Shown: in pieces, positions 480 to 35,989 of the stretch
Layout of the letters: every line of letters begins with the position of its first letter
Position numbering within the stretch: the stretch's first letter is position 1
Translations under genes and position numbers: made by a program
Origin: Planctomycetota bacterium
Lineage (GTDB): Bacteria > Planctomycetota > UBA11346
Assembly (NCBI GenBank): GCA_031382605.1
Contig: JANMYZ010000511.1
Span: forward strand, 1-35,989
Direction of reading: 5' to 3'
DNA length: 35,989 nucleotides
Notes under the pieces: generated by a model
Told to the model about the DNA's origin: nothing
The model's database searches: none
What the model saw: only the letters and a program-made list of their open reading frames with translations

Positions 480-527
480 CCTTTGCGCTGCTTTGCGGCA
501 AAAGGGTTCTCTATGCTTTTTTCTAGG
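480..527 (-). mobile_element. Truncated fragment (A-end only) of the family-A MITE-like element, inverted
   Basis: cctttgcgct-gctttgcggcaaaagggttctctatgcttttttctagg aligns to the reverse complement of the A-end of the copies at 32159 and 33198, with a 7-nt gap. The other half of the element is absent. Confidence 0.6.
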
Positions 528-653
528 CCCATCTCAGCCGACATTATGAGCCTGACGCAGTGTGAGGCCGTTGCCTAATCTTTCGCCGTCTTTTCTTGTG
601 ATGACCATCAGGCCTCTCATAACTCGCGCAAATTCACCCGAGCGCAAATCCAC

Positions 654-1886
654 ATGAGCGAAAATATTTTTATTTCATTGACGAATCCGCTCACCTCGGC
701 TGGTGCCCCCGTGCAGCTGGCCACTGGGGTGGCGATTTTGGTTGGGCAAAATCAAGCCGACGTTCGCGCTTCGGCCCGCCTTATCATTGAACAACTTTTG
801 CACGCTGGGCGTCAGGTGGTGGTGATTGATGATCATTTAGGCAGCGTCGGACTGCGCGTACGCAGCGATCGTCGGGCACACGGATTCGCCATCCCGATTT
901 TTGGCGGTGCCTATCAAGATCTTCCCATGCCCGACGACATGGAGGTTCTCGCAGACGTGCTGGAGCAGAAACGCGTATCTGCCGTGCTGTGTTTGCAGGG
1001 TGAACCAACTTCTTTTGGCCGTCGCGTTGGGCAGTTGCTGCATAAATTCCGGATCAATAAAACACCCCTGACAGTGGTGATTCTGCCGGGTTGGGTTCTT
1101 GGCGATGATTCGTGTCGCGCGCTTGGGGACGAGCACCTGTCAGGTTCGCAGCACGAGCAGCACCTGGTGGCAGTAAACCCGACCCAGGAATGGTTGCGGC
1201 GCCAAGCGTCGTCGATCGAAGCCATGGTGATGCATCGCATGGCAGCTTTGGATCCCTATCAGCAGGAGATCAAACATTGGTATTCATTGCAGGCGACCAG
1301 CGCCACGAACCGACTTCCGTCTTTGGCCTCCTTAGCAACTGGTCAAGCCATCGTCATTTCGGTGCCCTCTCTCGTTCCGATAATCACCCTGATCGCTCAG
1401 CCAGAAACGGCGTTAGAAGCCGCAGGCGAGGCTGTGTGTCGCGAGATAGTTGACCCCACCGACTTGCTGGAAGAACTGCAAAATCAACAGGCGCTCAAAG
1501 AGCATCGTGATCGTTACGCCGTCTTAGAACAGGCGCGTTCTGGTGCGCTGGTAAGCACGATTGCACGGGCAGTGGGTTGGCCACAAGCGAAGATCATCGC
1601 GACGTTGACCGAGCATCACCTCACCCCGTGTTTGCGCTCCACAGAAAAGCCAGTTCTGGATCCCTCAGAGTCGGAATTGATTCTTCGTACATTTACCGAG
1701 TACCAATCGGTCAAAGCGATCGTCGCAGCAACTGGCATCCCGCGCCCCGTGGTGGCTGCCATACTGGCGACCGTCCCGCGCGCACAAATTTCAGCATGGA
1801 AGCGTTTGGCGCTCAAGCGCTATCAAATCAATTACTGCGCCAACAAGAAACAACCCGCAGGAAAAAAATCCGCCGTTGCCCGGTGA
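654..1886 (+). CDS. Hypothetical protein; N-terminal half resembles a P-loop NTPase fold (HerA/DUF87-like layout) without a Walker A lysine; C-terminal helical HTH-like repeats
   Basis: 410-aa ORF with an ATG start. The strand-loop-helix VAILVGQNQADVRASARLIIEQLLHAGRQVVVIDDH sits where GxxGxGKS/T would be. Later segments STIARAVGWPQAKIIATL and SVKAIVAATGIPRPVVAAIL look HTH-like. The function is inferred only. Confidence 0.7.
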   Translation: MSENIFISLTNPLTSAGAPVQLATGVAILVGQNQADVRASARLIIEQLLHAGRQVVVIDDHLGSVGLRVRSDRRAHGFAIPIFGGAYQDLPMPDDMEVLADVLEQKRVSAVLCLQGEPTSFGRRVGQLLHKFRINKTPLTVVILPGWVLGDDSCRALGDEHLSGSQHEQHLVAVNPTQEWLRRQASSIEAMVMHRMAALDPYQQEIKHWYSLQATSATNRLPSLASLATGQAIVISVPSLVPIITLIAQPETALEAAGEAVCREIVDPTDLLEELQNQQALKEHRDRYAVLEQARSGALVSTIARAVGWPQAKIIATLTEHHLTPCLRSTEKPVLDPSESELILRTFTEYQSVKAIVAATGIPRPVVAAILATVPRAQISAWKRLALKRYQINYCANKKQPAGKKSAVAR

Positions 1887-1887
1887 T

Positions 1888-2110
1888 CCTAGAAAACGCA
1901 GTAAAGAACCATTTTACCGCTATACCCCGTTGGGGCACCCAGCCGCTAAGAGCGCAATACCCTGTTGGGGCACTTAGGACTTACAGCACAATCAAGCTTC
2001 ACCTGTTTACTGAAGCCATTGATCATCTCAATTTTGATTTAAACCTTTGCTTTTCTTAGCGTCTTTGCGCCTTCGCGGTGGAAGTATGAATTCCTACTAC
2101 GGTTTTTAGG
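1888..2110 (+). mobile_element. Family-A MITE-like palindromic element, long variant
   Basis: Starts cctagaaaacgcagtaaagaacc and ends gaattcctactacggtttttagg (imperfect terminal inverted repeats). It begins 1 nt after TGA at 1884-1886. It carries a duplicated ccc(c/t)gttggggcac module that the short copies lack. Confidence 0.85.
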
Positions 2111-2278: not shown

Positions 2279-3082
2279 ATGCCTGTCGCCATTGATTCCT
2301 TCCAATCCATGTCCATGCCCTTGGTGATCTCTGCTGTGGTGGCAGTGGTGCTGTTGGCAGTCCACGCTGGCATCGCGCTGGTTATCGTTCGCGGTATCGC
2401 GGGTGATGACGGCGATCCGCGAGGGATTGGAAAACGTTTCTTTCTGCGAGTGGCTTTGGTGTGCGGGGCGCTGAATTTGGCGCTGGTTCCGGTAACGGTA
2501 ATGATGCTTGCCCCTGCCGGATTGACCAACCGCACGATGATCGCGATGGAGCTGGGACTTGCGTGCCTGTTGGTCAGCACGCTGTGGATTTGGCGCGAAT
2601 TAGCCGCGCCCACACGCGGCAGCGGCACGCAGTTTCCGCACATCGTCGGTGGATTTTTGCTGTTTTGCCTCGCCTTGGTCACCATCAAGTTGGTGCATCA
2701 AGACGAAGTGTCCTATGCCTATCGAGTGGCCAATCCGCCCAAGGAAACGCTGAGCGCGGTGGCCGTGGCCTCTACGCCAGTGCCGGTGGCAACACCAACG
2801 ATCGCTATTCCAGCAGGAGCCGATGCCGATCCGGTCTTCGTCAAAGGCGAAAAAGTTTTCAAGACCATCTGCATGAGCTGTCACGCATTGGATAGGCGCC
2901 TGGTTGGCCCGCCGATTCAAGAAATTGCCGAAGTCTATAAAGGTAACCCGGATGGCATCGCTGCCTGGGCCAAAGCTCCTGGCAAAAAACGCCCAGATTA
3001 TCCGCCCATGATCGCGATTCCGTTTCCGGACGAAGATCTCAAAGCCGCTGGCGTTTACATGTTGAAGGTCGGCGCAAAGTAA
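2279..3082 (+). CDS. Membrane-anchored mono-heme c-type cytochrome (class I, c551/c552-like C-terminal domain)
   Basis: Several N-terminal hydrophobic helices. The C-terminal domain has a CMSCH heme-binding motif in the context GEKVFKTICMSCHALDRRLVGPPIQEIAEVYKG, with a downstream PPMIAI as a candidate Met ligand. Confidence 0.85.
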   Translation: MPVAIDSFQSMSMPLVISAVVAVVLLAVHAGIALVIVRGIAGDDGDPRGIGKRFFLRVALVCGALNLALVPVTVMMLAPAGLTNRTMIAMELGLACLLVSTLWIWRELAAPTRGSGTQFPHIVGGFLLFCLALVTIKLVHQDEVSYAYRVANPPKETLSAVAVASTPVPVATPTIAIPAGADADPVFVKGEKVFKTICMSCHALDRRLVGPPIQEIAEVYKGNPDGIAAWAKAPGKKRPDYPPMIAIPFPDEDLKAAGVYMLKVGAK

Positions 3083-3125
3083 AAAGAAGAGAGCTCAGGG
3101 GAGCTTAAGAGAACATAACAGCGCT

Positions 3126-3713: not shown

Positions 3714-3785
3714 GTGAGTTTTTCCGCAATTCCCACCCCCAAGGGCTAGCCCATCAACGCCGTTGCCGAATTCGTGTCTCTGCGG

Positions 3786-16805: not shown

Positions 16806-17159
16806 ATGCTAAAAATCTACACCTACAAAAGCTGCTCCACCTGCCGCAAGGCGGTCGCTCATCTCACCCGAGCGGGCAAGTCATTCGCTGAAGTGCCGAT
16901 TCGTGAAACGCCGCCGACGGTGGACGAACTCAAGCGCATGCTCACCGCGCTGGGTGGCGACATGAAGGCGTTGTTCAATCGCAGCGGCCAGGATTACCGC
17001 GCATTGAACCTCAAAGATAAACTTCCAACTATGAGCGAAGCCGAGGCGCTGAAGTTACTCAGCACCAACGGCAATTTAGTCCGCCGTCCATTCGCCTTCA
17101 TCGGCCGCAACGGGATCGTGGGATACGATGAAGTGGCGTGGGACGCTCAGTTGAAGTGA
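16806..17159 (+). CDS. ArsC/Spx/YffB-family thioredoxin-fold protein
   Basis: MLKIYTYKSCSTCRKA (CxxC near the N-terminus) and LVRRPF near the C-terminus. 117 aa. Confidence 0.87.
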   Translation: MLKIYTYKSCSTCRKAVAHLTRAGKSFAEVPIRETPPTVDELKRMLTALGGDMKALFNRSGQDYRALNLKDKLPTMSEAEALKLLSTNGNLVRRPFAFIGRNGIVGYDEVAWDAQLK

Positions 17160-19425: not shown

Positions 19426-19859
19426 CCTAAAAACGCAGTAGAGAATCATTTTACCGCAATACCCCGTTTGGGCACTTAGCCGCCAAGAGCGCAAAGGACT
19501 TACAGCAAAAAATAAGAGGCTCTTCAGTGTTTCGTGTGGGTTCAATCTCATTGGACAGCCAAAGAAGAAAACATCGAACAGGAGACGCGGAGACGCAGAG
19601 ATCGGAGGAGGGTAAGATGCTTGCCGGAGAGAATATGCCTTTCACTCCTCTTACCTCCGCGTCTCCGCGCCTCCTGTTCGATTTTCTTCCCGCTTTGATG
19701 AGCCCCAAGGACGGAGAAAAGACCCACACTGAACGACGCAGAGCCAAATAAGACTCATCTGTTTAGTGAAGCCCTGATCATACGAAATTGAATTCAAAAT
19801 CCTGACTTTCCTCTGCCTCTTTGCGACTTTGCGGTGGAATTTTGAATTCCTACTGCCGC
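19426..19859 (+). mobile_element. Family-A MITE-like element interrupted by a nested second element; B-end terminus degenerate
   Basis: The A-end is cctaaaaacgcagtagagaatcattttaccgc. The B-half (19754-19859) matches the copy at 33198. The terminal gtttagg is missing, and the element ends 8 nt from the minus-strand TGA at 19868-19870. Confidence 0.85.
19518..19745. mobile_element. Family-B MITE-like element (228 bp) nested inside a family-A copy
   Basis: Flanked by a perfect 8-bp direct duplication aaataaga (19510-19517 and 19746-19753). Its ends are ggctcttcagtg...cgacgcagagcc (imperfect inverted repeats). It has a long internal palindrome, gaagaaaacatcgaacaggagacgcggagacgcagag paired with cctccgcgtctccgcgcctcctgttcgattttcttc. 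Confidence 0.85.
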
Positions 19860-19867
19860 CACAATGA

Positions 19868-22269: not shown

Positions 22270-24642
22270 TTATGGTCCAGCTTGCTCGGGCACGTAATTG
22301 ATGGTGTTGAAGATTTCTTGCTCAATCGCGGCACCATCGGCTGATTTAATTTTGAACTTGATCCGCATCTGCATGACGACCTGGGTTGGCATCTCCATAA
22401 ACACCGACTTCCCATCGGCTGACACGGTTAACCTGCTGATCTCGACCCGATCGTGGCCCTGATCTTTATCGCCAGTGCTGGGCTTGAATTCCGGGGAACC
22501 GTATTCGTTGGTCCACTTATAATTCCATTGCTCGATCGTGTAGTTTTCCCGATTTGCTGCCTCAGTCGGATTGAGTGTGCTTGAAAATGTCAGCGCAATC
22601 CCGTTCTTCTTCACCGCCAGGCCGGTAACGGAATTCAGGGCCTTGCCAGTGTAGCGGATGCGCTGCACGCCGCCCATTTTAGAGCCACTGGTCTGCCAAC
22701 CTTGCAGCCCAGCCAGATACAATTGGCCATCCTTGGGATTGACGCGACCGCGAGCGATGCCGGTGTTGAATTTAAGCGGGAACTGCACCGTGCCGCCCTG
22801 AAACCCGCAGCTCGTCGGGCTATCAGGAATTTTTTCCATCAGCACCAAATGCAACGTGCACTTGCCATAAGAAATATGCAGCAGGCGGTCAGCCAAGGGG
22901 CCCCATTGATTGCCCTTAGTTGACCACACTTGGCCGCCGTTGGAATTATCGACGTTCATCGGCGACCAATAAATTGGCCGCGTGTAATCGCTTGGCGGAG
23001 GGCTGGTATGTGCCAAGTCAGGCACGCCGATGAACAGCGGAATCTTGGTCGGCGGAATCGCCGTGACGCGACATGCCGGAGTCCACGTGCCTTGGTTGTC
23101 ACCGACGGTGACGATGTTATCTGGCCCGCCAAAAGCCGAGCCATTCGGCGCACGTACACCGGTGCCGATGATTTCCAGTTTAGCGCCGTCCTTGCTGACG
23201 CGCATAACCGTACCCGCGTGTTTGCTGATGGTTTCCCAGCCGCGTCCACCCGGGCGCACCGGGCCGCCCTTAGCGAAAATAAAATTGCCGTGGTTGTCGG
23301 TGTGCAGATCCAGCGCGAATTCGTGAAAATTTGGCGTGACGTGCATGTCGTTATTGAAATTTTCAAAGTAATCAGCCTCGCCGTCACCGTTCACATCGTG
23401 CAGACGGGTGATCTGATCGCGACCCAACGTATAGATGGTATCGTCGACGATTTTCAGGCCCAACGTTTGATAAAGCCCAGCCGCGTAGCGCTTCCAGACA
23501 ATTTTCTCAAGCTTGTCATCAAGGCCGCTGATCACCCACACATCACCGTTCCACGTCGACACCGCCGCACGACCATCGCGGAAGAAATCGATGCCACCCA
23601 GGCGCAGCCGTGAACCGTAGGGGTTGTCTTTTGCATCGGCAGGCGTGGTGATGGTGTCCACGACGTAGGCCGCATCGCCCGTGCCCAACGATCCTTTCAC
23701 CTCGACGGTTTCTTTCCATAACACCGGCCCGCCTTTGGTCAGCGTCGTCGGATCAACCGCTGGGGTCGCACCCGTGAGCGCGTCGGCGTCTTCGGCCATG
23801 ACCAACTTGAACACGCCTGCCGCTCCAGCGGGCACCTTCATTAAAATGCGCTCGCCATCGATCACCAACATCACCCCCGCAGGAGCGTCGATCAGCGTCG
23901 CAGCCAGTTGCTTGCCATCGCCACTGAGCGTTGCGATTCCTCCGTTGACGGCGCCCGCACCCTTGGGCAGATCGCTGACCACCATGGACGAGGCCGCAGC
24001 AAACTTGGCGAGCTTAAACGTGCGACTGATGGCTTTGCCATTGGTTTCCAATGCTGGCGTTTCCAACACCGCCGAACCACCGACGGTGTAGGAAAGCACG
24101 GTTTTTTCTCCGTTGAGATACACGCCTTTCCATTTCGCCCAATCGGCGGGCAACGGACCAAACGGTTCACTGCGTGGATCATGAAGCGTCTCGCCCTTCG
24201 ACCAGCCTGGGGCGACTTTGGTGCCAAAGAACTGCTTGCCCGCAACTTTGGGACCAGACTCGCCATGGCCACCGTCATAAGCAACGCCGCGCAGATTAAG
24301 GAAACCACCCGTCCAACCTGCGGAATAGCGCAGCAAATCCGTATCAAAACACACTCCGGCTTGAAGTCCTTCAACGCCGAATTTGGCCCCCAGATTTACC
24401 GCAACCCCCTTCATCGCGATATTCTTATCCGGCCATTGGGCCGTGATGGTGGCGGAGTGAATCGGACCCGTATCCATTTTTCGGAACCATTCTTTATTAT
24501 CTCGTTTTTTCTTCTCGGCTTCCGTCTTCTTTTCGGCTTCAAGCTTCTTTTTGTCCGTATCGCTTTGGCTATCCGCCGCACCAACCCAACAGGCCAGCAA
24601 TGGAATAAGGGCGAGCGAACGAACGAGGGTAAACAGTTTCAT
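22270..24642 (-). CDS. Secreted beta-propeller protein of the PVC 'membrane-bound dehydrogenase domain' type (glucose/sorbosone-dehydrogenase-like), without a heme domain
   Basis: The ATG at 24642 has aaggagg 7 nt upstream and gives the signal peptide MKLFTLVRSLALIPLLACWVGAA. Hallmark DVNGDGEADYFENFNND...FHEFALDL. No CxxCH anywhere. Confidence 0.82.
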   Translation of the reverse strand: MKLFTLVRSLALIPLLACWVGAADSQSDTDKKKLEAEKKTEAEKKKRDNKEWFRKMDTGPIHSATITAQWPDKNIAMKGVAVNLGAKFGVEGLQAGVCFDTDLLRYSAGWTGGFLNLRGVAYDGGHGESGPKVAGKQFFGTKVAPGWSKGETLHDPRSEPFGPLPADWAKWKGVYLNGEKTVLSYTVGGSAVLETPALETNGKAISRTFKLAKFAAASSMVVSDLPKGAGAVNGGIATLSGDGKQLAATLIDAPAGVMLVIDGERILMKVPAGAAGVFKLVMAEDADALTGATPAVDPTTLTKGGPVLWKETVEVKGSLGTGDAAYVVDTITTPADAKDNPYGSRLRLGGIDFFRDGRAAVSTWNGDVWVISGLDDKLEKIVWKRYAAGLYQTLGLKIVDDTIYTLGRDQITRLHDVNGDGEADYFENFNNDMHVTPNFHEFALDLHTDNHGNFIFAKGGPVRPGGRGWETISKHAGTVMRVSKDGAKLEIIGTGVRAPNGSAFGGPDNIVTVGDNQGTWTPACRVTAIPPTKIPLFIGVPDLAHTSPPPSDYTRPIYWSPMNVDNSNGGQVWSTKGNQWGPLADRLLHISYGKCTLHLVLMEKIPDSPTSCGFQGGTVQFPLKFNTGIARGRVNPKDGQLYLAGLQGWQTSGSKMGGVQRIRYTGKALNSVTGLAVKKNGIALTFSSTLNPTEAANRENYTIEQWNYKWTNEYGSPEFKPSTGDKDQGHDRVEISRLTVSADGKSVFMEMPTQVVMQMRIKFKIKSADGAAIEQEIFNTINYVPEQAGP

Positions 24643-24735
24643 AAGCGCAGCCTCCTTCACGGGGGACGATAAGAAACATGACATACCCCAACGTGGCCCT
24701 GACATTGACGACTATTTTACCACTCCACCTTTCAG

Positions 24736-24770
24736 CTGAAAAAACGCAGGAGAGAACCATTTTACCGCAA
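24736..24770 (+). mobile_element. Solo A-end fragment of the family-A element
   Basis: ctgaaaaaacgcaggagagaaccattttaccgcaa matches the first ~35 nt of the full copies, and the remainder is absent. It lies in the divergent intergenic region between the two paralogs. Confidence 0.5.
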
Positions 24771-24936
24771 CTGTTTTAGCGGTTACCGCGTGAAACCACA
24801 GTGCTCATCAACTTTTTTATCGTGTCACGGTATCATTGCTTGCTCACACTTTCCATTGACTTGATTGCCGCTCACAAAGATTGAATCCACAGTCCGCGCC
24901 TCAATCAAACCCATCAGTTACCAGTCCGAGGATTCT

Positions 24937-27162
24937 ATGTCATTCAAAGCTTATTGTGCTTATTGTGCCGTTGCGCTTACTCTTTTTACCAGCTCGCTCA
25001 TTCTTTGCGCCGAGGATAAAGCCGCTAAACAACCTTATCGTCAAATGGATTACGGCCCGAGTTTGAATTGGACGTACCAAGTCGCTGGTGATCACATCGT
25101 TTACAAAGGAATCGCCGTTCAAGTGGACGATGCAGCTGGTGGTATCGGCAAAGGTCATGCCTGGATGGTTTTTGATCACGACACGCTTTCGATGGCGGCC
25201 GCGTGGGTCACGCCAGAAGGATCGGACAAGGCACCGTTTATTGACTGGAAGGGTGTGGCCTTCGATAGCTCACACAGCAGCCATCCTTTCATTGCTGGTA
25301 AAACCGTTTTCGTCAATCGCCCAGGCCCTGGATATGCGTACCCTGCTAACGGCTCATTTGATGACCCGCGTTATGTCAGTCCTGTGGATCACAAAATGTA
25401 TGGTCCAATTCCTCGCGAATGGGCACATTTCCAGGGACTTTATCGTTCGGAAAATAAAGTCGTCATTGCTTATACTGTGGGGAAAACGTCAGTCCTTGAG
25501 TTGCCTGGCTATGATCGTTCATCCAGTATCTTCTCTCGTACTTTTTATATCGAAAAAAACGTCAAGCCATTGATCTTGCGCGTCGCGCCAGAAACGACGG
25601 CGGTGACAATTTCCGGTTTAGCTAGCTCTTCATTGAAAAAAAATAGCGGCTCATGGTTCCTCAATATACCGGCTTCAACCAAACCATTACGCTTTAAACT
25701 TATGCTCAGCGATGTTGCGCCGGCCGCCGCGGCCGTGAAAGACCAAGAAAAAATTGAGGAAATCGAACGGTTGTGTAAGGGCGGAAAGAGTGTCTGGACT
25801 GAGACGGTCACCACGACCATCGCCAAAGTCGAGAGCGGCCATGGCCTAACTTCTGAAACGTTGACGTTGCCCGACAATAACCCATGGAAATCATGGATTC
25901 GTACGGGTGGATTTGACTTTTTCGCCGATGGCAAGCGCGCGGCCGTGTGCACCTGGAGCGGAGACGTTTGGATGGTTAGTGGTGTTGACGGAGCCGTCGG
26001 CGCAGAACTTAAATGGAAACGCGTTGCCTCTGGTTTATTTCAAGCGCTTGGGGTTAAAATTGTCAACGACAAGATTTACGTTTCATGCCGCGATCAAATC
26101 GTGCGCTTAAATGATGTGAACGGCGACGGCGAAACTGACTTTTATGAGAACTTTAACAACGACCATCAGGTAACCGAGCACTTCCATGAATTTGCCATGG
26201 GACTGCAAGCCGACAAACAGGGTAATTTTTACTACGCTAAATCCGCTCGTCATGCTTTGCCGGGGCTTATTCCGCAACACGGCACGCTCATGCGCGTTTC
26301 GGCAGATGGAATGAAAAGTACCATCGTCGCCACCGGTTTTAGAGCGGCCAATGGCGTGTGCGTCAATGATGACGGCACCTTTTATGTCACCGATCAAGAG
26401 GGTCATTGGACGCCGAAGAACCGCATCAACTTGGTCAAAGAGGGTGGTTTTTATGGCAACATGAATACCTTGCTGCCCAAAGAACAGACTTCAGAAGATA
26501 GCGCGATGAACCAACCGCTAGTGTGGATAACCAACAACTGTGATCGTTCGCCTGGGGAACTCGTCAACGTTAAGAGTTCTCCTTGGGGCGACCTCAATGG
26601 AAAACTTCTCAACGTGTCGTATGGAACCGGACAAATCTTTTTAGTTTTGAAAGAAAGCGTTGGTCGCATGCAACAAGGCGGAGTCGTTCCGCTACCGCTA
26701 CGCTTTCCTACCGGCATTATGCGTGGCCGTTTCCACGCCAACGGTGATTTCTATGCCTGTGGTTTGGTTGGTTGGTCATCAAATACCAGCAAACCCGGTG
26801 GCTTCTACCGCATTAAATTGACCGATCCCCTTGATGTTCCCGTGAGCTTATCCGCAACCAAAAAAGGAATTATCGTCGGCTTCGCTCAAACGCTTGATAA
26901 GGAAACTGCGACGAGTACGGACGCTTACGTTATAAAAGCCTGGGACCTCAAACGTAGCGCGAATTACGGTTCCAACCACATCAACGAACATGCTTTAGAA
27001 ATCAGCGGAGTTGACCTCCTGCCAGATGGCAAGTCCGTGCTTATCAAAGCCGCCAACCTTGCGCCAACCTGGGGTATGTCGATTAAAATTCGCATCAAGA
27101 CTGCTGACGGCAAAGCCGTTGCGTGCGAGATCAATAATTCAATTTTCGCTTTGAAAGAATAA
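24937..27162 (+). CDS. Paralog of 22270..24642: secreted beta-propeller dehydrogenase-like protein, AT-richer
   Basis: The ATG at 24937 (gagga upstream) gives the signal-like MSFKAYCAYCAVALTLFTSSLILCAEDK. The ORF track starts at the TTG at 24865. It is collinear with the paralog, for example DVNGDGETDFYENFNND...FHEFAMGL and GDVWMVSG versus GDVWVISG. Confidence 0.82.
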   Translation: MSFKAYCAYCAVALTLFTSSLILCAEDKAAKQPYRQMDYGPSLNWTYQVAGDHIVYKGIAVQVDDAAGGIGKGHAWMVFDHDTLSMAAAWVTPEGSDKAPFIDWKGVAFDSSHSSHPFIAGKTVFVNRPGPGYAYPANGSFDDPRYVSPVDHKMYGPIPREWAHFQGLYRSENKVVIAYTVGKTSVLELPGYDRSSSIFSRTFYIEKNVKPLILRVAPETTAVTISGLASSSLKKNSGSWFLNIPASTKPLRFKLMLSDVAPAAAAVKDQEKIEEIERLCKGGKSVWTETVTTTIAKVESGHGLTSETLTLPDNNPWKSWIRTGGFDFFADGKRAAVCTWSGDVWMVSGVDGAVGAELKWKRVASGLFQALGVKIVNDKIYVSCRDQIVRLNDVNGDGETDFYENFNNDHQVTEHFHEFAMGLQADKQGNFYYAKSARHALPGLIPQHGTLMRVSADGMKSTIVATGFRAANGVCVNDDGTFYVTDQEGHWTPKNRINLVKEGGFYGNMNTLLPKEQTSEDSAMNQPLVWITNNCDRSPGELVNVKSSPWGDLNGKLLNVSYGTGQIFLVLKESVGRMQQGGVVPLPLRFPTGIMRGRFHANGDFYACGLVGWSSNTSKPGGFYRIKLTDPLDVPVSLSATKKGIIVGFAQTLDKETATSTDAYVIKAWDLKRSANYGSNHINEHALEISGVDLLPDGKSVLIKAANLAPTWGMSIKIRIKTADGKAVACEINNSIFALKE

Positions 27163-27167
27163 AGGAT

Positions 27168-27344
27168 AAATAAAGGACGGCGCGCCGGGCAGGCCGGCTA
27201 AGAGTTGGGGCTGCAAGACCATCACCCGTTTTCCCGGTGGATGGTCGGCAGCGGAAGTTGTCACTCGGCCTAGTGGTCACGATAAAAGACGCGACCATAG
27301 AGAGCGTCATCACATTGACTTCGCTCTAGAAAGGTGGCGAGACA
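27168..27344 (+). repeat. 177-bp direct repeat, copy A
   Basis: Identical to 30121..30297 except at 27175 (g/t) and 27259 (t/c). Starts 6 nt after the stop of the upstream gene. Confidence 0.95.
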
Positions 27345-27481: not shown

Positions 27482-30055
27482 ATGAATTTTATTAAACTTA
27501 TCCTCTTGGCTTTAGTAGCAAGTGCTCTTTGGGCTGTGGGTGTGCCGAGCGCTTACGGAGAGACCGTCAGCCTGGTCTCGGTCGGATCAGATGGCATGCT
27601 TAAATATGGGCTCTACGCCAACCAGGGGCAGTCCAATGTCGTGAACCGACTGCCGGATTTCTCCCGCGCAGGCTATCAGGGCGGCGGTGTTCCAATTCCG
27701 TTCGTGCCCGCAGTGATCACCGTGTCTCCTGGGCCGGGCGACAATAGGATTCTAATTCAAAACGCCATCGACGCGGTTTCCTTGAGAGCCTTGGAGGCAA
27801 ACGGATTTCGCGGTGCCGTGCTGTTGAAAGCGGGAACTTATGAGGTTGGCAGCGCGCTGATCATCAATGCTAGCGGTGTGGTGTTGCGTGGTGAAGGGTC
27901 GCAAGCTGTCGGCGGAACAAGGATTGTCCTTACGGCAACTCAGTCTGGAAATCTCATCGAGGCTAGAAAAAGTGTTACTTTAATAGAAGTCGTAGAAACG
28001 CGCAGGCCGATTAGCCAAAGTTACGTTCCCGTCGGGGCCATATCGTTTACCGTGAATTCGGCGGCCAACTATCGTGTTGGTGATAAGATTATAGTGCATA
28101 GAAAAACCAATGATAATTGGATCACAGATCTAAAAATGAACGACTTTGGCTGGACAGCGAGTAACTATCAAGGACGCTATCGTCGAGTTATTACCGCCAT
28201 CACTGGGGACACGATTTCCATCGATGCGCCGATTGTTCAAGTCATCGAGGATAAGTACGGTGGAGGCGACATCTACCAGTACACTAAGTCGACATTATTT
28301 GAAAATGTAGGCATTGAAGCCTTGCGCCTTGAATCGACTTATGTCAGTGGCGAAGATGATAAACACGGAAAATTTGCCTGTGTGTTAGAGGGCGTAGAGA
28401 ATGGTTGGGTGAGACAGGTTACCGCCGTGCATTTTTCAAATACCTGCGTCAGCATCAATAACGCTAGTCATCAGATTACCATTGAAGATTGCGCGCAACT
28501 TGACCCGAAGGGTCCCATAGTAGGCGGCTGGAGGTACTCCTTCAATTTGGACGATTGTTCATACGTATTAACGCAACGCTGCTACGCCGAATCCGGGAGG
28601 CATGATTATGTCAGCGGTAGTCAAACGCCTGGGCCGAACGCGTTTGTAGATTGTGTCGCACATGACACCAAGAGTGATAGTGGGCCGCACCATCGGTATT
28701 CTACCGGGCAAATTTACGACAACATCAACTGCGGAGAGTTGAATGTCCAGAACCGTAGAGGTTCTGGGAGTGGCCACGGTTGGGCAGGTGCTCAAATCCT
28801 CTTCTGGAATTGTAAGGGTAATTCGATCTGCGACGCGCCGTTAGGCGCCATGAACTGGTCGGTGGGTTTTGACGGACAGCACAGTGAAAGCTCTTTCTCT
28901 CCAGACGAGCCCGATGGCATATGGCAATCCCACAACACCCGGGTCGCGCCTCGCTCACTTTACCAGGCGCAACTCAAGGAACGCATGGGGAAAACGGCCT
29001 TGCGCAACGTAATCCTGCCCATGCAAGCCGTGGGTACGATCTGGCCAAGCCTAGCTAGTTGGGCTGGTAACGGACTCTTCGGTGATCAAGTTATCGTTTG
29101 GGAAGACGATGCGGTCGTGTCACCGCCAAACGTGAAAACCGTTTATGGTACTGTGCGGAATCTACAAATGCTTGATAGTGGTATCGTTTGTTCGTGGACG
29201 AAAGTGTCAGGACCGGGCACGGTCTTATTTGCAGCTGCCACATCTTTAAGGACAACGGCTATATTTTCTAGCGCTGGCACCTACGTGCTGCGTCTGGTCG
29301 CCAGTGGTGGAACGCGGACTGTCATTGTTGATGTGTCCATAACCGCGTCGGGGGCACCCGTGAATGTAGCGCCACAGGTGAATGCTGGCGCTGATAAATC
29401 ACTGACATTACCAGCGTCGGCAAGCTTAGTCGGCACCGCGAGTGATGATGGCTTGCCAAGTGGCTCAACGTTGACGACGATGTGGTCAAAAGTGAGCGGC
29501 CCAGGCACAGTGACCTTTGCCAATGCGAGTGCAAAATCGACCACAGCTACGTTCTCGGGGGCTGGTACTTATGTGCTGCGCTTGACGGCCAGTGATGGCA
29601 CGCTTCCGTCTACCGATGACATGTCCGTAACGGTAATCGAGTCTGGCGGCGGCGTCACGGCGCCACCTAAACCAGCGGCGCCAACTACGTCAGGCGATGG
29701 AACCGCGACTCCAACCATATCGGGCGATACGACCGCAGGAGCAACCGTGCATATCTTTATAGATGGAACGGAAGTCGACACTGTCATCGCCGGTTCAGAT
29801 GGGAAATGGACCTATCCGATAACCGGTTTGCCTGCTGGCACGCACACGATCACGGTCACGTCTCAAAATGCTGGGGGCACATCTGACCTCAGCAGTCCAA
29901 CGACCATCACTGTTGTCGCTACCGGCGTTAGCACACCGCCCGCTAGTGACAAAGGCGGCAGCCGCTGCGGATTGGGCGGGTTATCGGCGAGTTTATTTAT
30001 GCTGTTTTTCGCCTTTGTGATATTTACGCAAAGAGTTGTCCAGAATAACAGATGA
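27482..30055 (+). CDS. Secreted or cell-surface right-handed beta-helix (pectate-lyase-superfamily-like) protein with two PKD-like repeats, an Ig-like domain and a C-terminal Gly-rich/TM/basic tail
   Basis: Signal peptide MNFIKLILLALVASALWAVG. N-terminal block ILIQNAIDAV...GAVLLKAGTYEVGSALIINASGVVLRGEG. Tandem repeats W(T/S)KVSGPGTV.F..A....T.A.FS.AGTYVLRL.AS. Tail GGSRCGLGGLSASLFMLFFAFVIFTQRVVQNNR. Confidence 0.85.
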   Translation: MNFIKLILLALVASALWAVGVPSAYGETVSLVSVGSDGMLKYGLYANQGQSNVVNRLPDFSRAGYQGGGVPIPFVPAVITVSPGPGDNRILIQNAIDAVSLRALEANGFRGAVLLKAGTYEVGSALIINASGVVLRGEGSQAVGGTRIVLTATQSGNLIEARKSVTLIEVVETRRPISQSYVPVGAISFTVNSAANYRVGDKIIVHRKTNDNWITDLKMNDFGWTASNYQGRYRRVITAITGDTISIDAPIVQVIEDKYGGGDIYQYTKSTLFENVGIEALRLESTYVSGEDDKHGKFACVLEGVENGWVRQVTAVHFSNTCVSINNASHQITIEDCAQLDPKGPIVGGWRYSFNLDDCSYVLTQRCYAESGRHDYVSGSQTPGPNAFVDCVAHDTKSDSGPHHRYSTGQIYDNINCGELNVQNRRGSGSGHGWAGAQILFWNCKGNSICDAPLGAMNWSVGFDGQHSESSFSPDEPDGIWQSHNTRVAPRSLYQAQLKERMGKTALRNVILPMQAVGTIWPSLASWAGNGLFGDQVIVWEDDAVVSPPNVKTVYGTVRNLQMLDSGIVCSWTKVSGPGTVLFAAATSLRTTAIFSSAGTYVLRLVASGGTRTVIVDVSITASGAPVNVAPQVNAGADKSLTLPASASLVGTASDDGLPSGSTLTTMWSKVSGPGTVTFANASAKSTTATFSGAGTYVLRLTASDGTLPSTDDMSVTVIESGGGVTAPPKPAAPTTSGDGTATPTISGDTTAGATVHIFIDGTEVDTVIAGSDGKWTYPITGLPAGTHTITVTSQNAGGTSDLSSPTTITVVATGVSTPPASDKGGSRCGLGGLSASLFMLFFAFVIFTQRVVQNNR

Positions 30056-30120
30056 TTGGTGGAAAAATCGACATGAATAATCGCGGTTAGGGCGGGAGCT
30101 GGAGCTGTGGGCCAAAGAAA

Positions 30121-30297
30121 AAATAAATGACGGCGCGCCGGGCAGGCCGGCTAAGAGTTGGGGCTGCAAGACCATCACCCGTTTTCCCGGTGGATGGTCG
30201 GCAGCGGAAGTCGTCACTCGGCCTAGTGGTCACGATAAAAGACGCGACCATAGAGAGCGTCATCACATTGACTTCGCTCTAGAAAGGTGGCGAGACA
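30121..30297 (+). repeat. 177-bp direct repeat, copy B
   Basis: 175/177 identical to 27168..27344, at an offset of exactly 2953 bp. Confidence 0.95.
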
Positions 30298-30480
30298 TTC
30301 TTTGTTTTCTGCGTCCTCCATTATTTAAAAAACTGGGTTGTTTGGGTACGCTGCGGACGCTATGGCCATGGGCCAACGAGCAGCAGCGCCGGATGCACAT
30401 CAGATCGCAGTCGCACCAGGTGGCGGCGATTGCACCAGGGAATCGTGCCACCATCGTCCTCGCCCACGAATGGACATCCT

Positions 30481-32157
30481 ATGAGCAAAAAATCGCAAAA
30501 AACCGAGCGCAAAAAGAAGAAACGCCAAGAGCGCATTCGGCAGGAAAAACATCAGCGTCACTTGACGCCCGCTGTGCCGTCGTTCTGGGACACCGATGTG
30601 CCCGTGCGGAAAGACCCCCGCCGGTCGATGGACATCGAGCGTTGGTTACGTGGCCATGCGCAGCGCACCGGACAGTGGGTGGTGGGCATGCCGGAATTGG
30701 CGCAGGCCCTGAATGCAAGTAAGTCGAATCCGGTGGTGGGTCCTGGAGAGCTTGCCGGCGCGCCAGCCGTGGAACGCGCGCAGGAACTGGCGTTCCAGTG
30801 CATGGAGACAGACGATGACGATGCAGCGGCGATCCTGGCGCGGGCCGCGTTAGAGATTGATGCAGCTAACCTGGATGCACGGCGGACGTTGATCATCTAT
30901 GAGGCCGCTGGCGATCCGGATGCCTGCTACCGTCGGCTGCAGGGTCTGTTAGATGAGGCCGGCTCGACGCTCGATCAGGCGCTGGTCGCCGCGACGACAG
31001 GGCAGCTCAGTCGTCTGCTGAGTGCTCGGCCATTCCTGCGGGTGCTGCAAGGCCTGATGATTAAGGCGGCGCAGCAGCACGATCTGGAGCGCCTGGCGCC
31101 CGTGATGAAGAGCTACGTCGGCTTCGATCAAGCGAGTTGCTGGGTGGCGGTCGGGCGCGCGTTGAAGCTCCTGAATCAGGATGAACGTTGGGATTGCGCG
31201 GCACGACTGCGGGACTTGGTGATCGCTGACGGTGTCAGTCGATGGATGCTCGATGGCCTGTTGGCACTGCGCGGGGGCGATCGTCGCGCCGCCGGCGATC
31301 AGATTCGCCAAGCGGTTGTGCGGAATCCACTTTTACGTCAGCAATTGCAGGATGCTGGCAGCAGCCCGATCTCTGAGCTGGGGTACGAGGCAACCACCCT
31401 CGCCAACGGCCTTGAACCGCTGATCAATGATCTGCCGGATTTCCCCGACTGGCTGGCCGATGGCATGCCATGGATGGACCAAGCGGCGATCGACCGTGCG
31501 CTGAAGGCCTATGCTAAGCCGCTGTCAAACTTGCTGGCTCTGGGCCAATCGGCCATCGACGAGATCGACTACGTTCAGAGATATGGCATCGGGCCGCAGC
31601 ACCGCGAACCACTCGAACAAATGCTGAAGGATCCGGTCTTCCAGCAGGTGGGCCCGACCGATCCGGAGGTCTTCGCGACGATGCATGCGTGGCGTGCGCT
31701 CGGCCAGATTGGCGACCAACGCAGTCTGCCGGTATTGTTTTCCGTATTGTTGGACCCGGATGCCGGCGACTGGGACTATGAGGAACTGCCGGAAATCATC
31801 GGGCGTTTCGCTGCCGCCGCCCTGCCGAGCACGCTCAAAGAACACCGCGTACGCCTCGCCGACCCAGATGGAAATGAGACCCTGCTGTGGGCGTTACAAC
31901 GCATCCTGGCGCTCATCGCCAAACGTGACCCGGAGTCGCGCGGCGCAGTGATCGACTGCCTCCGCGCCGTGGTGACTGACCCGCAGATGCACCTCATCAC
32001 CACGCGAGCATCGGCGATCGCCAGCCTGAGCGAGTTGCGCGCGGTTGAATGCTTGCCCTGCATCGAACAAGCCTACGCCGACGGAATGGTCGACATCGGC
32101 TACGTCGGTCTGTCGTCCGTTCGCGAGCAGATGGCCAAGGGAGAGGTCGACGGTTGA
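30481..32157 (+). CDS. GC-rich hypothetical protein with polybasic N-terminus and C-terminal HEAT/PBS-lyase-like repeats (DUF1186-like impression)
   Basis: I chose the ATG at 30481 (MSKKSQKTERKKKKRQERIRQEKHQRH) over the TTG at 30430. C-terminal repeats include WRALGQIGDQRSLPVLFSVLLDPD and ASAIASLSELRAVECLPCIEQAY. Confidence 0.72.
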   Translation: MSKKSQKTERKKKKRQERIRQEKHQRHLTPAVPSFWDTDVPVRKDPRRSMDIERWLRGHAQRTGQWVVGMPELAQALNASKSNPVVGPGELAGAPAVERAQELAFQCMETDDDDAAAILARAALEIDAANLDARRTLIIYEAAGDPDACYRRLQGLLDEAGSTLDQALVAATTGQLSRLLSARPFLRVLQGLMIKAAQQHDLERLAPVMKSYVGFDQASCWVAVGRALKLLNQDERWDCAARLRDLVIADGVSRWMLDGLLALRGGDRRAAGDQIRQAVVRNPLLRQQLQDAGSSPISELGYEATTLANGLEPLINDLPDFPDWLADGMPWMDQAAIDRALKAYAKPLSNLLALGQSAIDEIDYVQRYGIGPQHREPLEQMLKDPVFQQVGPTDPEVFATMHAWRALGQIGDQRSLPVLFSVLLDPDAGDWDYEELPEIIGRFAAAALPSTLKEHRVRLADPDGNETLLWALQRILALIAKRDPESRGAVIDCLRAVVTDPQMHLITTRASAIASLSELRAVECLPCIEQAYADGMVDIGYVGLSSVREQMAKGEVDG

Positions 32158-32158
32158 A

Positions 32159-32345
32159 CCTAAAAAACGCAGTAGAGAACCATTTTACCGCTAAGCCGCA
32201 AAGAGCGCAAAGGACTTACAGCAAAATTAAGCTTTACCCGTTTGGTGAAGCCATTGATCATCTCAATTTTGATTCAAACCTTTGCTTTTCTTGGCGTCTT
32301 TGCGCCTTAGCGGTGGAAGTTTGAATTCCTATTGCGGTTTTTAGG
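32159..32345 (+). mobile_element. Family-A MITE-like palindromic element, short variant (reference copy)
   Basis: TIRs are cctaaaaaacgcagtag and ctattgcggtttttagg, with about 15 of the first 17 positions complementary. Perfect 5-bp duplication ttgaa at 32154-32158 and 32346-32350, and the left copy contains the TGA stop at 32155-32157. Confidence 0.9.
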
Positions 32346-32490
32346 TTGAAGTCCCCGGAGGCCTGACTGATGACAACGATGACCGTCAGACGACCGGCCA
32401 TTTGGGCGCGTATCGACCGGACCATAACCATGGACGGACAACCACGGACGAGTTTGGCCGACACGATTCCGCACGTCGGCTGGAATCTGA

Positions 32491-32530
32491 GATCGTACGC
32501 GATCACGCGCGATCACGCGCCATCACGTGC
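32491..32530. repeat. Four tandem 10-bp units (gatcgtacgc gatcacgcgc gatcacgcgc catcacgtgc) upstream of the lipoprotein gene
   Basis: Read directly. The period is exactly 10 bp. It is followed by the near-palindrome gcgctgatcgcgatagcgc at 32547-32565, and the ATG is at 32579. Confidence 0.85.
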
Positions 32531-32578
32531 GCCTGATCGCGGGTTGCGCTGATCGCGATAGCGCAAGCATGGTCACGC

Positions 32579-33040
32579 ATGTCAACGTTCAGCGCTTGGA
32601 CCTCAGGAATAATGGCGTTTTTTCTGCTGGCGTTGATGGGCTGTCAGGCTCATACGCCACCAGATGACGTTGTCGCAACGCGGCTGCGGGTGGCAGTGAC
32701 CGCAACGTGCGCGGCCATGGGTTTGCCGATTGAAGAGCGTCCCACGGGCCGGGCGCTGGATGATCAGGTGGGATTATTGGCGATGCGATTATCGGCAGAA
32801 CGCGTGAACTCCATCACCAGCGGAGCCCTTGATCGGCAGGTGGTGCTCGATGCTTTTCAGGCCGCCTTGAAACGGCGCGCGGCGCGGCAATCAACCAGTG
32901 AGCCGCCACGTTTACTGGCTTTTTTGCTCGACAAAGTCCCGCAGTGGACCGTCGACCAGACGCTGTTGGCGTCCGCTTTACTGGCGCAGTTTGAGCATGA
33001 GGCCCAGTTGGTTCCGAAGTCGCCAGGGCTCATTCGCTGA
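32579..33040 (+). CDS. Hypothetical lipoprotein
   Basis: MSTFSAWTSGIMAFFLLALMGC has a hydrophobic signal and the lipobox LMGC. The remainder is helical and Ala/Leu-rich. Confidence 0.6.
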   Translation: MSTFSAWTSGIMAFFLLALMGCQAHTPPDDVVATRLRVAVTATCAAMGLPIEERPTGRALDDQVGLLAMRLSAERVNSITSGALDRQVVLDAFQAALKRRAARQSTSEPPRLLAFLLDKVPQWTVDQTLLASALLAQFEHEAQLVPKSPGLIR

Positions 33041-33197
33041 CGCCGTCCGGTGCGGCCATGCAGGTGGCGACCCACGAATTGACGCAGATTTCGCTGCGTA
33101 GCGGCGCTAGCTTGGAGGCGCTGACGGTGATCCGTACGGTGACGGATCGTTATGCGAAAAATAATATCTGGACAGCCGAGCATCGTGAACGTTTGAG

Positions 33198-33385
33198 CCT
33201 AAAAAACGCAGTAGAGAACCATTTTACCGCAAAGCAGCAAAGAGCGCAAAGGACTTACATCAAAAACAAGATTCATCTGTTTGGTGAAGTCCTTGATCAT
33301 ACGAAATTGAGTTCAAAACCCTGCCTTTCCTTTGTGTCTTTGCGTCTTTGCGTTGGAAATTTGAATTCCTACTGCCGCGTTTAGG
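33198..33385 (+). mobile_element. Family-A MITE-like element, variant B-half
   Basis: Perfect 5-bp duplication ttgag at 33193-33197 and 33386-33390. 138/139 identical to the reverse complement of 35851..35989. Confidence 0.9.
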
Positions 33386-33677
33386 TTGAGTTCGAGGATA
33401 TTCCTGAACATCCACTCGACGCGGATACGCGTCGTTGCGTACAACGCGTTGACCGGTCGATAGCCATTGAGTTTCCAGATGCTCTGGTAGCAGAAATAGC
33501 GGGCGAAAACCGGACGAAAGTTTGGATCGTTCTCAGAAGCAGCATTCTTGTGGGCGGCGGAAAGGCCATTGCCGCCAACACCTTGGTGATTATTTTCTGC
33601 GCCGCGTTCATTCCGCCGGCGATAAATACGAACGACAAAAGTTGTATTTTGAAGCCGCGTTTCCATGCAGGGTACCC

Positions 33678-35849
33678 ATGATCATTCTCCCGCTCCGCCC
33701 CGAGACCAACGAGCGGTACGCTCCCATCGGCACGATCGCCATGATGCTGGTCAACGTGCTCGTCCACGTCATCTGGGGGCGCGGTGATCCTGTCGCGCTG
33801 GAGCCGTACCTGCTCGACTTTCAGTCCGTCCAGCCGCTGCAGTGGCTGACCTCGGCGTTCCTGCACGCCGATTGGATGCATCTGATCGGTAACCTCGTCT
33901 TTCTCTACGTCTTCGGGGCCTTGGTTGAAGATTTCCTTGGGCGCTGGTTCGTGCCAGCTTACTTGTTTCTGGCCCTCGCCAGCGGCGCGCTGGAGCAGGG
34001 CCTGTGCCTGCTCGAAAACAGGGAGGGACACGCGCTGGGTGCCAGCTCGGCGATCTATGGCTTGATCGCGATGGCGACCCTGTGGGCGCCGCGCACCCAC
34101 ATCTCGACCTTCGTCTGGTTCATCGTCATCCGCCGACCGCAGGTGATGCCGATCCGCGTGATGTGGCTGGCGGGGTACTTTATGGTGCTGCAGATCATCA
34201 CGGTTTTGCTCACGAATGGCGAGCCCAGCTCGGAGTTTCTGCACGCCTGCGGCATCGCTGCCGGTCTTGTGCTGGGCTTCCTCTGCCTGCACCAGCGTTG
34301 GATCGATACTGATGGCGAAGACGTCCTGGCCACCGGTCCCAAGCGCGGCGCCAAGTCGGCCATCGTCGTGCCCACCGTGACGTGGGATGAACAGGCCGCG
34401 CGGCTCGACGCTGCTGCCGCCGCTGGGCAATGCCGCGTCGCGCTGGCCGCCTACGAGGTTTTGCGCCGCGAATATCCGGCGCGCCTGCCGAGCATGTCGG
34501 TGCTCGAACGCCTGATGGAGCTGTGCGAGGAGTCGCTGGATTTCCACCGTGCTGCCGCGATCGCCGATCGCGCCCTGGCCGCTGGCCCGGTCAGCGACGT
34601 CCTGCTGCTGCGCTACGCGCGCGTCAGCGGCGTGCACCAGGGCAATGTCGACGCCGGCCTGGCCATGGTCGCCACCATCGACGTGAATCAGCTGCCCGAG
34701 GACGTCCGTGGCGAACTGGCCCAGCTCAGCACTCGTCTGGAGCGGCGCCGCCGGCCTGGGGCGCCCATCACCACCCGGATCGCTCACATGCTGCTGGTGG
34801 TCTTGCTGTTGGGTGGCCTGGGTGCCCGGACATATGCAGAGGAGCAGAACGCGGCGGAACTGCACCCGCTCACTGGCCGCGTCGTGCTTGCGGGCGGTGC
34901 TGCGATCACGCTCACGCAGAGTTCCGTCTACGTCACCTGGAGCGACCTGAGCCAATTCCTGGCCCTGCCGCCGACACCGACACCGGCTGCGGGCGAGGAA
35001 CCGCTGGGCGTGATTTTTCCGGCGCAAGCCATCGAAGCGATGTACGAGCAGCGCGAGCGCAACGGTTCACCCGATGCGTGGCAACAGCGGTCGCAACAGG
35101 CCATAATGTGCCTCGGCGCCATCCAGGTGTTCTGGGCCGATGGCTGGATCGACTTGTCGCAGCCGCTGCCATCTGCCGCACAGTTGCTCGCCGATTTCCA
35201 GTTCCAAGCGCAGGTGATCAGCAACCGTCACCTGCTGGGACCTGGGGTCTCGCTCACCTACGATGGCTTCGGCCAGGAACCGGTGCTCAACGCCAGGGAC
35301 GGCACGCTCGCCTGGTCGATCCGCCTGCAGATCCTTGGCCAGGGCATACTCGCCGAGCACGCCCACCATTCTTGCCATCTTGGAGCCAGGGGCGTCCTGG
35401 CCCTGATCTGCGAAGACGTGGAGGTCTCGGACCCGTCCATCCGGCACCTGAAAACTGCCGACCTGATGCAGAAGGCTGCCAGCCAGATCAGCTGGGAACC
35501 GAAGAGCGGTTACACGACCACTCTGCCTGACGGCGTGGGCGAGCGCACCGGCGGCTTCCGACGATTAATGCAACCGCGCCTGACCTTCGGCCACGACACC
35601 GATGAGCTGGATTTTCACCGTGGTCTCGGCTTCGTCTGGATCGTGATCCTGCTGCCGTTGGGCGCCGTCCTGTTCCTCATCTGGCGCTGGGTCACCAAGA
35701 CCATGCAGCCGCCGGTTCGCACCAGCGCGGTGACGAGCAGTGCGGTGACCAGTGACGTCAACCGTTGTCCCGCCTGCGGCAGCCCCGTGACGGTGGCGAC
35801 GCCGCGCTGCGTGGCGTGCGGGACCAGCCTGATCCGGCGCTCCGGGTGA
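33678..35849 (+). CDS. Rhomboid-family intramembrane serine protease fused to a helical (TPR-like) segment, an extra TM, a ~250-aa DUF2167-like domain, a further TM and a C-terminal zinc ribbon
   Basis: I chose the ATG at 33678 (MIILPLRPE). Rhomboid motifs are HADWMHLIGNLVFLYVFG, the catalytic-Ser motif GASSAIYGLIAM and the catalytic-His helix HACGIAAGLVLG. The C-terminus has CPACGSPVTVATPRCVACG. Confidence 0.85.
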   Translation: MIILPLRPETNERYAPIGTIAMMLVNVLVHVIWGRGDPVALEPYLLDFQSVQPLQWLTSAFLHADWMHLIGNLVFLYVFGALVEDFLGRWFVPAYLFLALASGALEQGLCLLENREGHALGASSAIYGLIAMATLWAPRTHISTFVWFIVIRRPQVMPIRVMWLAGYFMVLQIITVLLTNGEPSSEFLHACGIAAGLVLGFLCLHQRWIDTDGEDVLATGPKRGAKSAIVVPTVTWDEQAARLDAAAAAGQCRVALAAYEVLRREYPARLPSMSVLERLMELCEESLDFHRAAAIADRALAAGPVSDVLLLRYARVSGVHQGNVDAGLAMVATIDVNQLPEDVRGELAQLSTRLERRRRPGAPITTRIAHMLLVVLLLGGLGARTYAEEQNAAELHPLTGRVVLAGGAAITLTQSSVYVTWSDLSQFLALPPTPTPAAGEEPLGVIFPAQAIEAMYEQRERNGSPDAWQQRSQQAIMCLGAIQVFWADGWIDLSQPLPSAAQLLADFQFQAQVISNRHLLGPGVSLTYDGFGQEPVLNARDGTLAWSIRLQILGQGILAEHAHHSCHLGARGVLALICEDVEVSDPSIRHLKTADLMQKAASQISWEPKSGYTTTLPDGVGERTGGFRRLMQPRLTFGHDTDELDFHRGLGFVWIVILLPLGAVLFLIWRWVTKTMQPPVRTSAVTSSAVTSDVNRCPACGSPVTVATPRCVACGTSLIRRSG

Positions 35850-35850
35850 T

Positions 35851-35989
35851 CCTAAACGCGGCAGTAGGAATTCAAATTTCCAACGCAAAGACGCAAAGAC
35901 ACAAAGGAAAGGCAGGGTTTTGAATTCAATTTCGTATGATCAAGGACTTCACCAAACAGATGAATCTTGTTTTTGATGTAAGTCCTTTG
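35851..35989 (-). mobile_element. Family-A MITE-like element, inverted orientation, cut by the window edge
   Basis: Begins 1 nt after TGA at 35847-35849 with the B-end cctaaacgcggcagtaggaattc. 138/139 identical to the reverse complement of the copy at 33198. Confidence 0.9.

Follow-up and report, generated by a model that had tools for sequence, protein, structure and literature searches.

Insertion sequences (IS) of the IS1380 family are about 1.6-2 kb long and have a single open reading frame (ORF), ends that start with CC, and direct repeats of 4-5 bp. Repetitive extragenic palindromes and bacterial interspersed mosaic elements (REP/BIME) have a GTAG/CGTC head, make no target-site duplications and depend on RAYT. 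[quoted passage not shown] Here we describe a palindromic repeat of about 187 bp, which we call family A, from contig JANMYZ010000511.1 of a Planctomycetota bacterium. The window that we analysed is 35,989 nt long and is this entire contig (C589), one of 727 in a metagenome-assembled genome (MAG) of 4.12 Mb (G000, GCA_031382605.1) that is 83% complete. We conclude that family A is very probably an orphan, non-autonomous and non-coding MITE of the IS1380 family, from the IS1247-like branch. A sequence-only reading of the window had proposed a palindromic, MITE-like element with terminal inverted repeats, and family A looks like a MITE in everything that we tested, which is size, lack of coding capacity, terminal inverted repeats, fixed-length duplications, copy number, empty sites in a sister species and termini in common with autonomous elements.

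When the copies from the window were searched against the whole assembly with blastn, we obtained 286 merged loci on 227 of the 727 contigs, about 45 kb in total, so family A is dispersed and not local. This settles one doubt of the sequence-only reading, that the motif might be confined to this locus. A contig end is touched by 63 of the 286 loci. The window has one copy per 4.5 kb, which is about 3 times the genome average (~286 loci in 4.12 Mb). The sister species G009 has at least 23 matches to family A, with up to 86% identity, and the termini have a patchy distribution in five other genera of the same taxonomic family.

We extracted 81 full-length copies with intact flanks from the whole assembly, and their consensus is 187 nt with 17-bp termini, CCTARAAAMCGCAGTAG. 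In the window copies, the ends read CCTAAAAAACGCAGTAG ... CTACTGCGGTTTTTAGG, where the left one can also be CCTA(A/G)AAAACGCAGTAG, and complementarity runs over most of the element. That each unit could fold into one hairpin had been suggested from the letters, and the copy at 32159-32345, folded as DNA, does give a single long hairpin with a minimum free energy of -43.1 kcal/mol versus -20.2 +/- 3.3 kcal/mol for dinucleotide shuffles (z = -6.96). The family A copies do not have a conserved ORF, and the ORFs that overlap them vary from copy to copy. Membership in a known RNA family or a conserved gene, the other doubt that had been raised, found no support: there were no Rfam matches in the window at gathering thresholds, and at E <= 1 there were none over the copies in 32100-33450. 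We also found no canonical promoter or terminator matches inside the family A copies. The 81 full copies fall into at least five subfamilies, set apart mostly by their central region and B arm, and some are 97-99% identical. Together with an optional 17-nt module, these subfamilies bear out the modularity that had been described. Identity over all pairs has a median of 80%, and for 20 of the 81 copies the nearest neighbour is at least 97% identical. These nearest-neighbour identities indicate that family A spread in several waves of amplification, some of them recent.

The 17-nt module is itself a hairpin, ATACCCCGTTGGGGCAC, and it occurs in the window at 1922-1938, 1957-1973 and 19459-19475 and at 44 sites genome-wide. 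It is confined to the arms of such palindromic repeats, mostly family A, and always splits a GC(A/T)AAG motif with a constant orientation relative to the motif, at several positions and in both arms. A very small insertion at a chosen target, or else an exchange among variants of the tandem repeats, could have given rise to it. The arms (32187-32212 and 32294-32316 in the window) are made of three tandem 8-9-nt repeats of the CGC(A/C)AAG type, and the same 30-nt arm module, without the CCTA termini, is found in other palindromic repeats of the relatives G002 (L003 1500-1760), G006 and G014.

Target-site duplications are clear. The 5 nt outside both termini are identical in 49 of the 81 full copies and have one mismatch in 14 more. 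All 49 perfect duplications have the form N-T-N-A-N, where the second base is T and the fourth is A, and their central triplets are TCA (18), TGA (16), TTA (8) and TAA (7). An NTNAN stands next to 214 of the 226 recognisable termini, and there is a weak extra preference around the target 5-mer for G before it and C after it.

For an empty-site test, we joined the flanks of 20 insertions, in each case with the 5-mer left in once, and looked for the joined sequences in six genomes of the same genus. Three joined flanks were collinear across the joint over 400 nt in the sister species: those of C79:3135-3321 with G009:C172 (86% identity), of C671:9326-9512 with G009:C163 (82%) and of C648:250-435 with G009:C8 (81%). 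The C79 junction is the one that we read base by base, and here G009 has ...CAGCAGCGCTCAACG..., with CTCAA once. These three G009 sites are empty orthologous sites. The 17161 copy of the window was uninformative because its two flanking genes are not adjacent in any relative. For the 32159 copy, the HEAT-repeat gene in G009 ends in GGCTGA with no element behind it; the alignment of the left flank reaches as far as this stop, and synteny ends there. The duplications, the hairpin architecture and the empty sites show that family A has spread by real transposition.

The idea that this was an IS1380-type element came from the CC ends and the 5-bp duplication, which point to this family in the ISfinder table, and we used it as a lead only. 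The sequence-only reading had suggested a search for an IS with the same ends, and this search succeeded in relatives, as ~1.7-kb IS1380-family elements, but not in the MAG's own genome. We searched the 48 genomes of the taxonomic family or order with NF033539, the NCBIfam model for IS1380, and an inverted-repeat scan then gave two elements. One is an IS of 1707 bp in G001, which is of the same genus (L025 99-1805, flanks GTTAT/GTTAA), and the other is an IS of 1710 bp in G049 (L024 1253-2962, flanks ATCAT/ATCAT). Their ends are CCTAAAGGCCGCGATAG / CCTAAATGCCGCGTTAG for G001 and CCTAAACACCGCGTTAG / CCTAGACGCCGCGTTAG for G049, and 11-14 of the 17 terminal positions are common with the MITE. The single ORFs of 523-525 aa match NF033539 with 161.7 bits (G001) and 166.3 bits (G049), over model positions 10-418 and 5-417 of 419. 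IS1380 is the top family by far, as the next-best IS family reaches ~32 bits, and both transposases match Pfam DDE_Tnp_1_4 at 84-87 bits, where the cut-off is 34.7 bits. A PDB sequence search with the relatives' transposase returned noise only.

We scanned the G001-type transposase against one genome per bacterial species and JGI metagenomes, which gave dozens of ~1.7-kb elements with 40-86% protein identity to the query, from Gammaproteobacteria (Poriferihabitaceae, Endozoicomonas), Alphaproteobacteria and others. Their ends all read CCTA[AG]A....GCAGT[AT][AG], and their duplications are NTNAN (TTCAT, TTCAA, TTCAG, ATGAA, ATCAT, GTAAT, ATTAC and TTTAT). In all, such CCTA[AG]A..GCAGT.. ends together with an NTNAN duplication were found on IS1380-family elements at more than 20 independent loci. 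The relatives have 11-16 of the 17 terminus positions in common with the MITE. L080 is 1669 bp long with CCTAAAAACCGCAGTTG at both ends, which is 16/17 to the B end of the MITE, and has the duplication GTAAT/GTAAT. L053 has CCTAAAAAACGCAGTTA, which is 15/17 to the A end. The variant B terminus in the 33198 subfamily, CCTAAACGCGGCAGTAG, is similar to the ends of the metagenomic elements with 62% identity to the query (L119), which read CCTAGACGCGGCGATAG. The autonomous relatives are thus built as IS1380-family elements are, with 1.67-1.71 kb (1669-1710 bp), one ORF, CCTA ends and 5-bp duplications. The size and the 5-bp repeats of IS1247 agree with them, which supports the assignment.

Several observations weigh against this assignment. 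The G001 and G049 transposases score just under the NCBIfam cut-off of 180 bits for IS1380. No autonomous element is identical to the MITE termini at both ends, and the likeness is confined to the 17-bp termini, as the MITE interior is unrelated. The MAG's own assembly has no NF033539 match and no match to the G001 transposase, a tblastn search of it with the longest ORFs of 19 loci with IS1380-like transposases found nothing, and there is no terminus pair more than 250 bp apart. Among other MITE-bearing relatives, G009 and G056 are without a transposase match and G055 has a weak match only. Insertion sequences are poorly recovered in MAGs. Since this MAG is 83% complete and highly fragmented, the missing IS is weak evidence either way.

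Some candidate partners were looked at and set aside. Termini with a non-MITE interior in the MAG's own genome turned out to be a second MITE family with the same termini. A terminus on C717 is a solo terminus beside a small palindromic repeat and an unannotated long ORF, with no transposase, and singleton termini in other genera are mostly solo ends beside ordinary genes. An ORF that starts at a terminus (L009:427-1080) has no Pfam match and looks non-coding. The canonical IS1380 elements of the taxonomic family that score above the NCBIfam cut-off (G010, G019, G050, G051 and G057) include none that was found with CCTAAAAA-type ends; the inverted repeats are different ones in G010 and G019, and for G050, G051 and G057 clear ends were not found. 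In G041, of another genus, there is an IS110-family transposase (Transposase_20 / DEDD_Tnp_IS110; ORF 1121-2665 of L011, C1:24500-28000) at a distance of ~400 bp to a solo terminus of the MITE type (3077-3093). IS110 elements are not known to have such inverted repeats or duplications, and on these properties we rejected it as a partner. This IS110 element may have inserted near a MITE.

In the mechanism that we propose, an IS1380-family DDE transposase supplied in trans would bind the 17-bp termini CCTARAAAMCGCAGTAG and insert the element at an N-T-N-A-N target via a cut with a stagger of 5 bp, whose repair would leave the 5-bp duplication. From the common ends and duplications we infer that it was probably this clade of transposases that mobilised family A. 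The source copy was presumably lost, which would make these fossil MITEs, or lies in a part of the population genome that did not enter the assembly or the bin.

Family A might also be a MITE that was moved by another family with a TNA target, such as the IS5 groups IS1031/IS427, a PIF/Harbinger-like element, IS630 or the system behind the miniature elements with inverted repeats that derive from Tn3 (TIMEs). The core of the target is indeed TNA, and TNA-type targets are known for some IS5-family groups. Tn3-derived TIMEs likewise give 5-bp duplications (PMC4133298). As there is no cognate transposase in the MAG's own genome, the assignment is made from ends and duplications. However, the duplication is 5 bp and not 2-4, with outer bases that match in all 49 perfect cases, and the same ends with an NTNAN duplication sit on IS1380-family elements at the >20 loci described above. 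The termini begin with CCTA, unlike those of Tn3 (GGGG) or IS5 (GA/GG). We consider a mobiliser from another family to be highly improbable.

Function in the host has to be weighed together with the places where the copies land. They are nearly always intergenic, and in five of the six full window copies the flanking 5-mer is on the stop of a long ORF. Genome-wide, with crude, ORF-based gene calls, 18 of the 81 insertions are on a gene stop versus an expectation of 7% for NTNAN sites between genes or on stops (p = 1e-5). Counted by ends with the same kind of gene calls, ~23% of insertions lie next to the stop of an ORF with 100 codons or more versus 9% for random permitted NTNAN sites, a 2-3-fold enrichment. 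Such landings, the long stable hairpins and the arms of short tandem CGCAAAG-type repeats, also present in other palindromic repeats of relatives, would suit a REP/BIME-like or enterobacterial repetitive intergenic consensus (ERIC)-like palindrome that is kept for a host function (stabilisation of mRNA 3' ends, termination or the binding of nucleoid proteins) and that spreads through a RAYT-type enzyme or recombination, not through DDE transposition. We find this hardly credible, as clear target-site duplications and empty sites are not known from REP/BIME, and 187 bp is well over the 20-40 bp that PMC3733652 gives for REPs. The copies also have no preferred orientation towards the neighbouring gene (15 A-end versus 13 B-end), which argues against a directional RNA function, and this goes with the lack of canonical terminators or promoters in the copies and of Rfam matches. 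The same excess could be read as co-option, where a MITE as described here has stop-codon copies that now serve as 3'-UTR hairpins and stabilise or terminate the upstream transcript. This is very unlikely in our judgement, because the enrichment is modest and purifying selection alone predicts it, 3'-end insertions sparing promoters and proteins, and because the two ends of the element stand next to the gene with equal frequency. That family A is more than selfish DNA, with stops as its preferred landing pads, the 187-nt hairpin as a 3'-end module of the upstream gene and the excess as a result of co-option, is a reading that we consider unlikely and that nothing in these data calls for. For a selfish MITE of the IS1380 family, landing on stop codons largely follows from the target, because any TNA triplet, read on one strand or the other, is a TGA or a TAA. 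When an element inserts at a stop, the stop is duplicated and the protein stays whole, so that the insertion survives selection, and a 2-3-fold excess is expected from tolerance of insertions as a by-product of the target.

All eight copies claimed for the window were recovered by repeat finding and blastn of the copies against the window, and neither search gave any further family A copy. The full copy at 1888-2110 (plus strand), found by sequence reading and blastn, has two extra 17-nt ATACCC(C/T)GTTGGGGCAC modules (1922-1938 and 1957-1973). Its left flank GTGAT holds the TGA stop (1884-1886) of the ORF at 654-1886; its right flank CTTAC fits NTNAN, yet is no duplicate of the left flank. A full short-form copy at 17161-17337 (plus strand) has flanks GTGAT / GTGAA, a 4/5 match, and the left flank includes the TGA stop (17157-17159) of an ArsC-family gene at 16806-17159. 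The next full copy, also on the plus strand, had been placed at 19426-19859. Its left end stands, but the right end had to be moved to 19866, as the B terminus of the copy is a degenerate one, CTACTGCCGCCACAATG, with ATCAG after it. The copy is interrupted by a nested, unrelated MITE and has flanks ATTAG / ATCAG (4/5 match), and the right flank at 19867-19871 includes the stop (TCA on the plus strand, 19868-19870) of a minus-strand multihaem cytochrome gene at 19868-22156.

The copy at 32159-32345 (full, plus strand) is our reference for the largest subfamily, with 20 of the 81 full copies. It has a perfect TTGAA/TTGAA duplication, and in the left TTGAA is the TGA (32155-32157) with which the HEAT-repeat gene at 30430-32157 stops. 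The copy at 33198-33385 (full, plus strand), with a perfect TTGAG/TTGAG duplication, is the reference for the subfamily with the B terminus CCTAAACGCGGCAGTAG. An inverted copy at 35851-35989 (minus strand), found by repeat search and sequence reading, is 99% identical to 33247-33385. It had been described as cut by the window edge, and since the window is the whole contig, this edge is the contig end. Its flank GTGAT includes the TGA stop (35847-35849) of a rhomboid-domain gene at 33522-35849. The 33198-33385 and 35851-35989 copies, 99% identical and inverted, thus stand on both sides of that gene and are a potential substrate for its inversion by homologous recombination. Two fragments complete the set. 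A truncated copy of 47 nt at 481-527 (minus strand) has the A arm only, with its terminus at 527, and is the reverse complement of CCTAGAAAAAAGCATAGAGAACCCTTTTGCCGCAAAGCAGCGCAAAGG; its flank CCCAT does not fit NTNAN. An A-arm fragment of 33 nt at 24738-24770 (plus strand) was found by repeat search and blastn.

The MITE nested in the 19426 copy is 228 bp long (19518-19745) and belongs to another family, with termini GGCTCT...AGAGCC and a perfect 8-bp duplication AAATAAGA at 19510-19517 and 19746-19753. It has copies on ~70 contigs of the MAG and many in the sister genome G009. Its GGCTCTTC-type ends and 8-bp duplication may resemble those of the ISL3 family. A third MITE family of ~290 bp, outside the window, is present on ~99 contigs (for example C101:572-871, and on C79, C310, C315 and C162). 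It has the same CCTAAAAACCGCAATGG termini, and its interior differs from that of family A in that it is built on CACAGAGGG tandem repeats. We would expect the same type of transposase to mobilise it. The stems of all three MITE families here are built of similar short tandem repeats: CGCAAAG, GACGCAGA and CACAGAGGG.

The sequence-only reading had seen no transposase in the window, and this holds here and for the whole assembly. The large ORFs of the window have housekeeping Pfam matches or no match. The matches are to ArsC, the endonuclease/exonuclease/phosphatase family, phospholipase D, a TrkA-domain ion channel, cytochromes c, ABC transporters, a histidine kinase, a D-Ala-D-Ala carboxypeptidase (peptidase S13), DUF6797 proteins, a PKD/Ig protein, a HEAT-repeat protein and a rhomboid-domain protein, and three ORFs are without a match. 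DUF6797 domains are in two divergent large genes, at 22270-24705 and 24865-27162. A direct repeat of 184 bp (27161-27344 and 30114-30297, 98% identical) lies just behind two large neighbouring genes, which are the DUF6797 protein gene at 24865-27162 and the PKD/Ig protein gene at 27482-30055. With only two full copies in the genome, it is no dispersed family. The GC content is 49-51% at 24-29 kb versus 55-60% for the rest of the contig.

Family A is selfish DNA of a kind that is ordinary in bacteria, and the general understanding of MITEs is unchanged by it. What it documents is a large expansion of a MITE, with recent activity, in an uncultured lineage of the Planctomycetota, in which a MITE is tied to the IS1380 family via its ends and target duplication and a clean N-T-N-A-N target is defined for that branch of IS1380. 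It also offers a simple account of why such elements often sit exactly on stop codons. On the practical side, family A is one cause of the fragmented assembly, with its 63 loci at contig ends, and family A and at least two other abundant MITE families would explain the break-up of the MAG into 727 contigs. Annotators should mask the repeat, as spurious ORFs cross its copies. A literature search of limited coverage found no paper that links any MITE to IS1380; this is no proof of novelty, and family A may be the first family of MITEs to be placed in the IS1380 branch.

Compared with known systems, family A is like the IS1380/IS1247-like insertion sequences in its termini, CCTA[AG]A and then ..GCAGT.., and in its 5-bp target duplication. 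It is unlike them in that it has 187 bp, encodes nothing and has only the 17-bp termini in common with them, with no autonomous copy in the assembly. Like REP/BIME, it is an intergenic palindromic repeat that is often just 3' of genes (PMC3733652), and it differs from them in its 187 bp (20-40 bp for REPs), its duplications, its empty sites and its CCTA termini. Tn3-derived TIMEs are also non-autonomous, moved in trans as family A presumably is, and flanked by 5-bp duplications (6-bp ones occur in TIMEs as well), but they have 38-bp inverted repeats of the Tn3 type, whereas the termini of family A are 17 bp, of the CCTA type, and match IS1380-like elements. The Microcystis MaeMITEs are similar in size, terminal inverted repeats, high copy number, intergenic sites, the presence of several families per genome and the nesting of one MITE in another. 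Unlike them, family A can be linked to IS1380 through its ends and its duplication, inserts at a target that is invariably NTNAN, and has arms of tandem CGCAAAG-type repeats with an optional 17-nt hairpin module.

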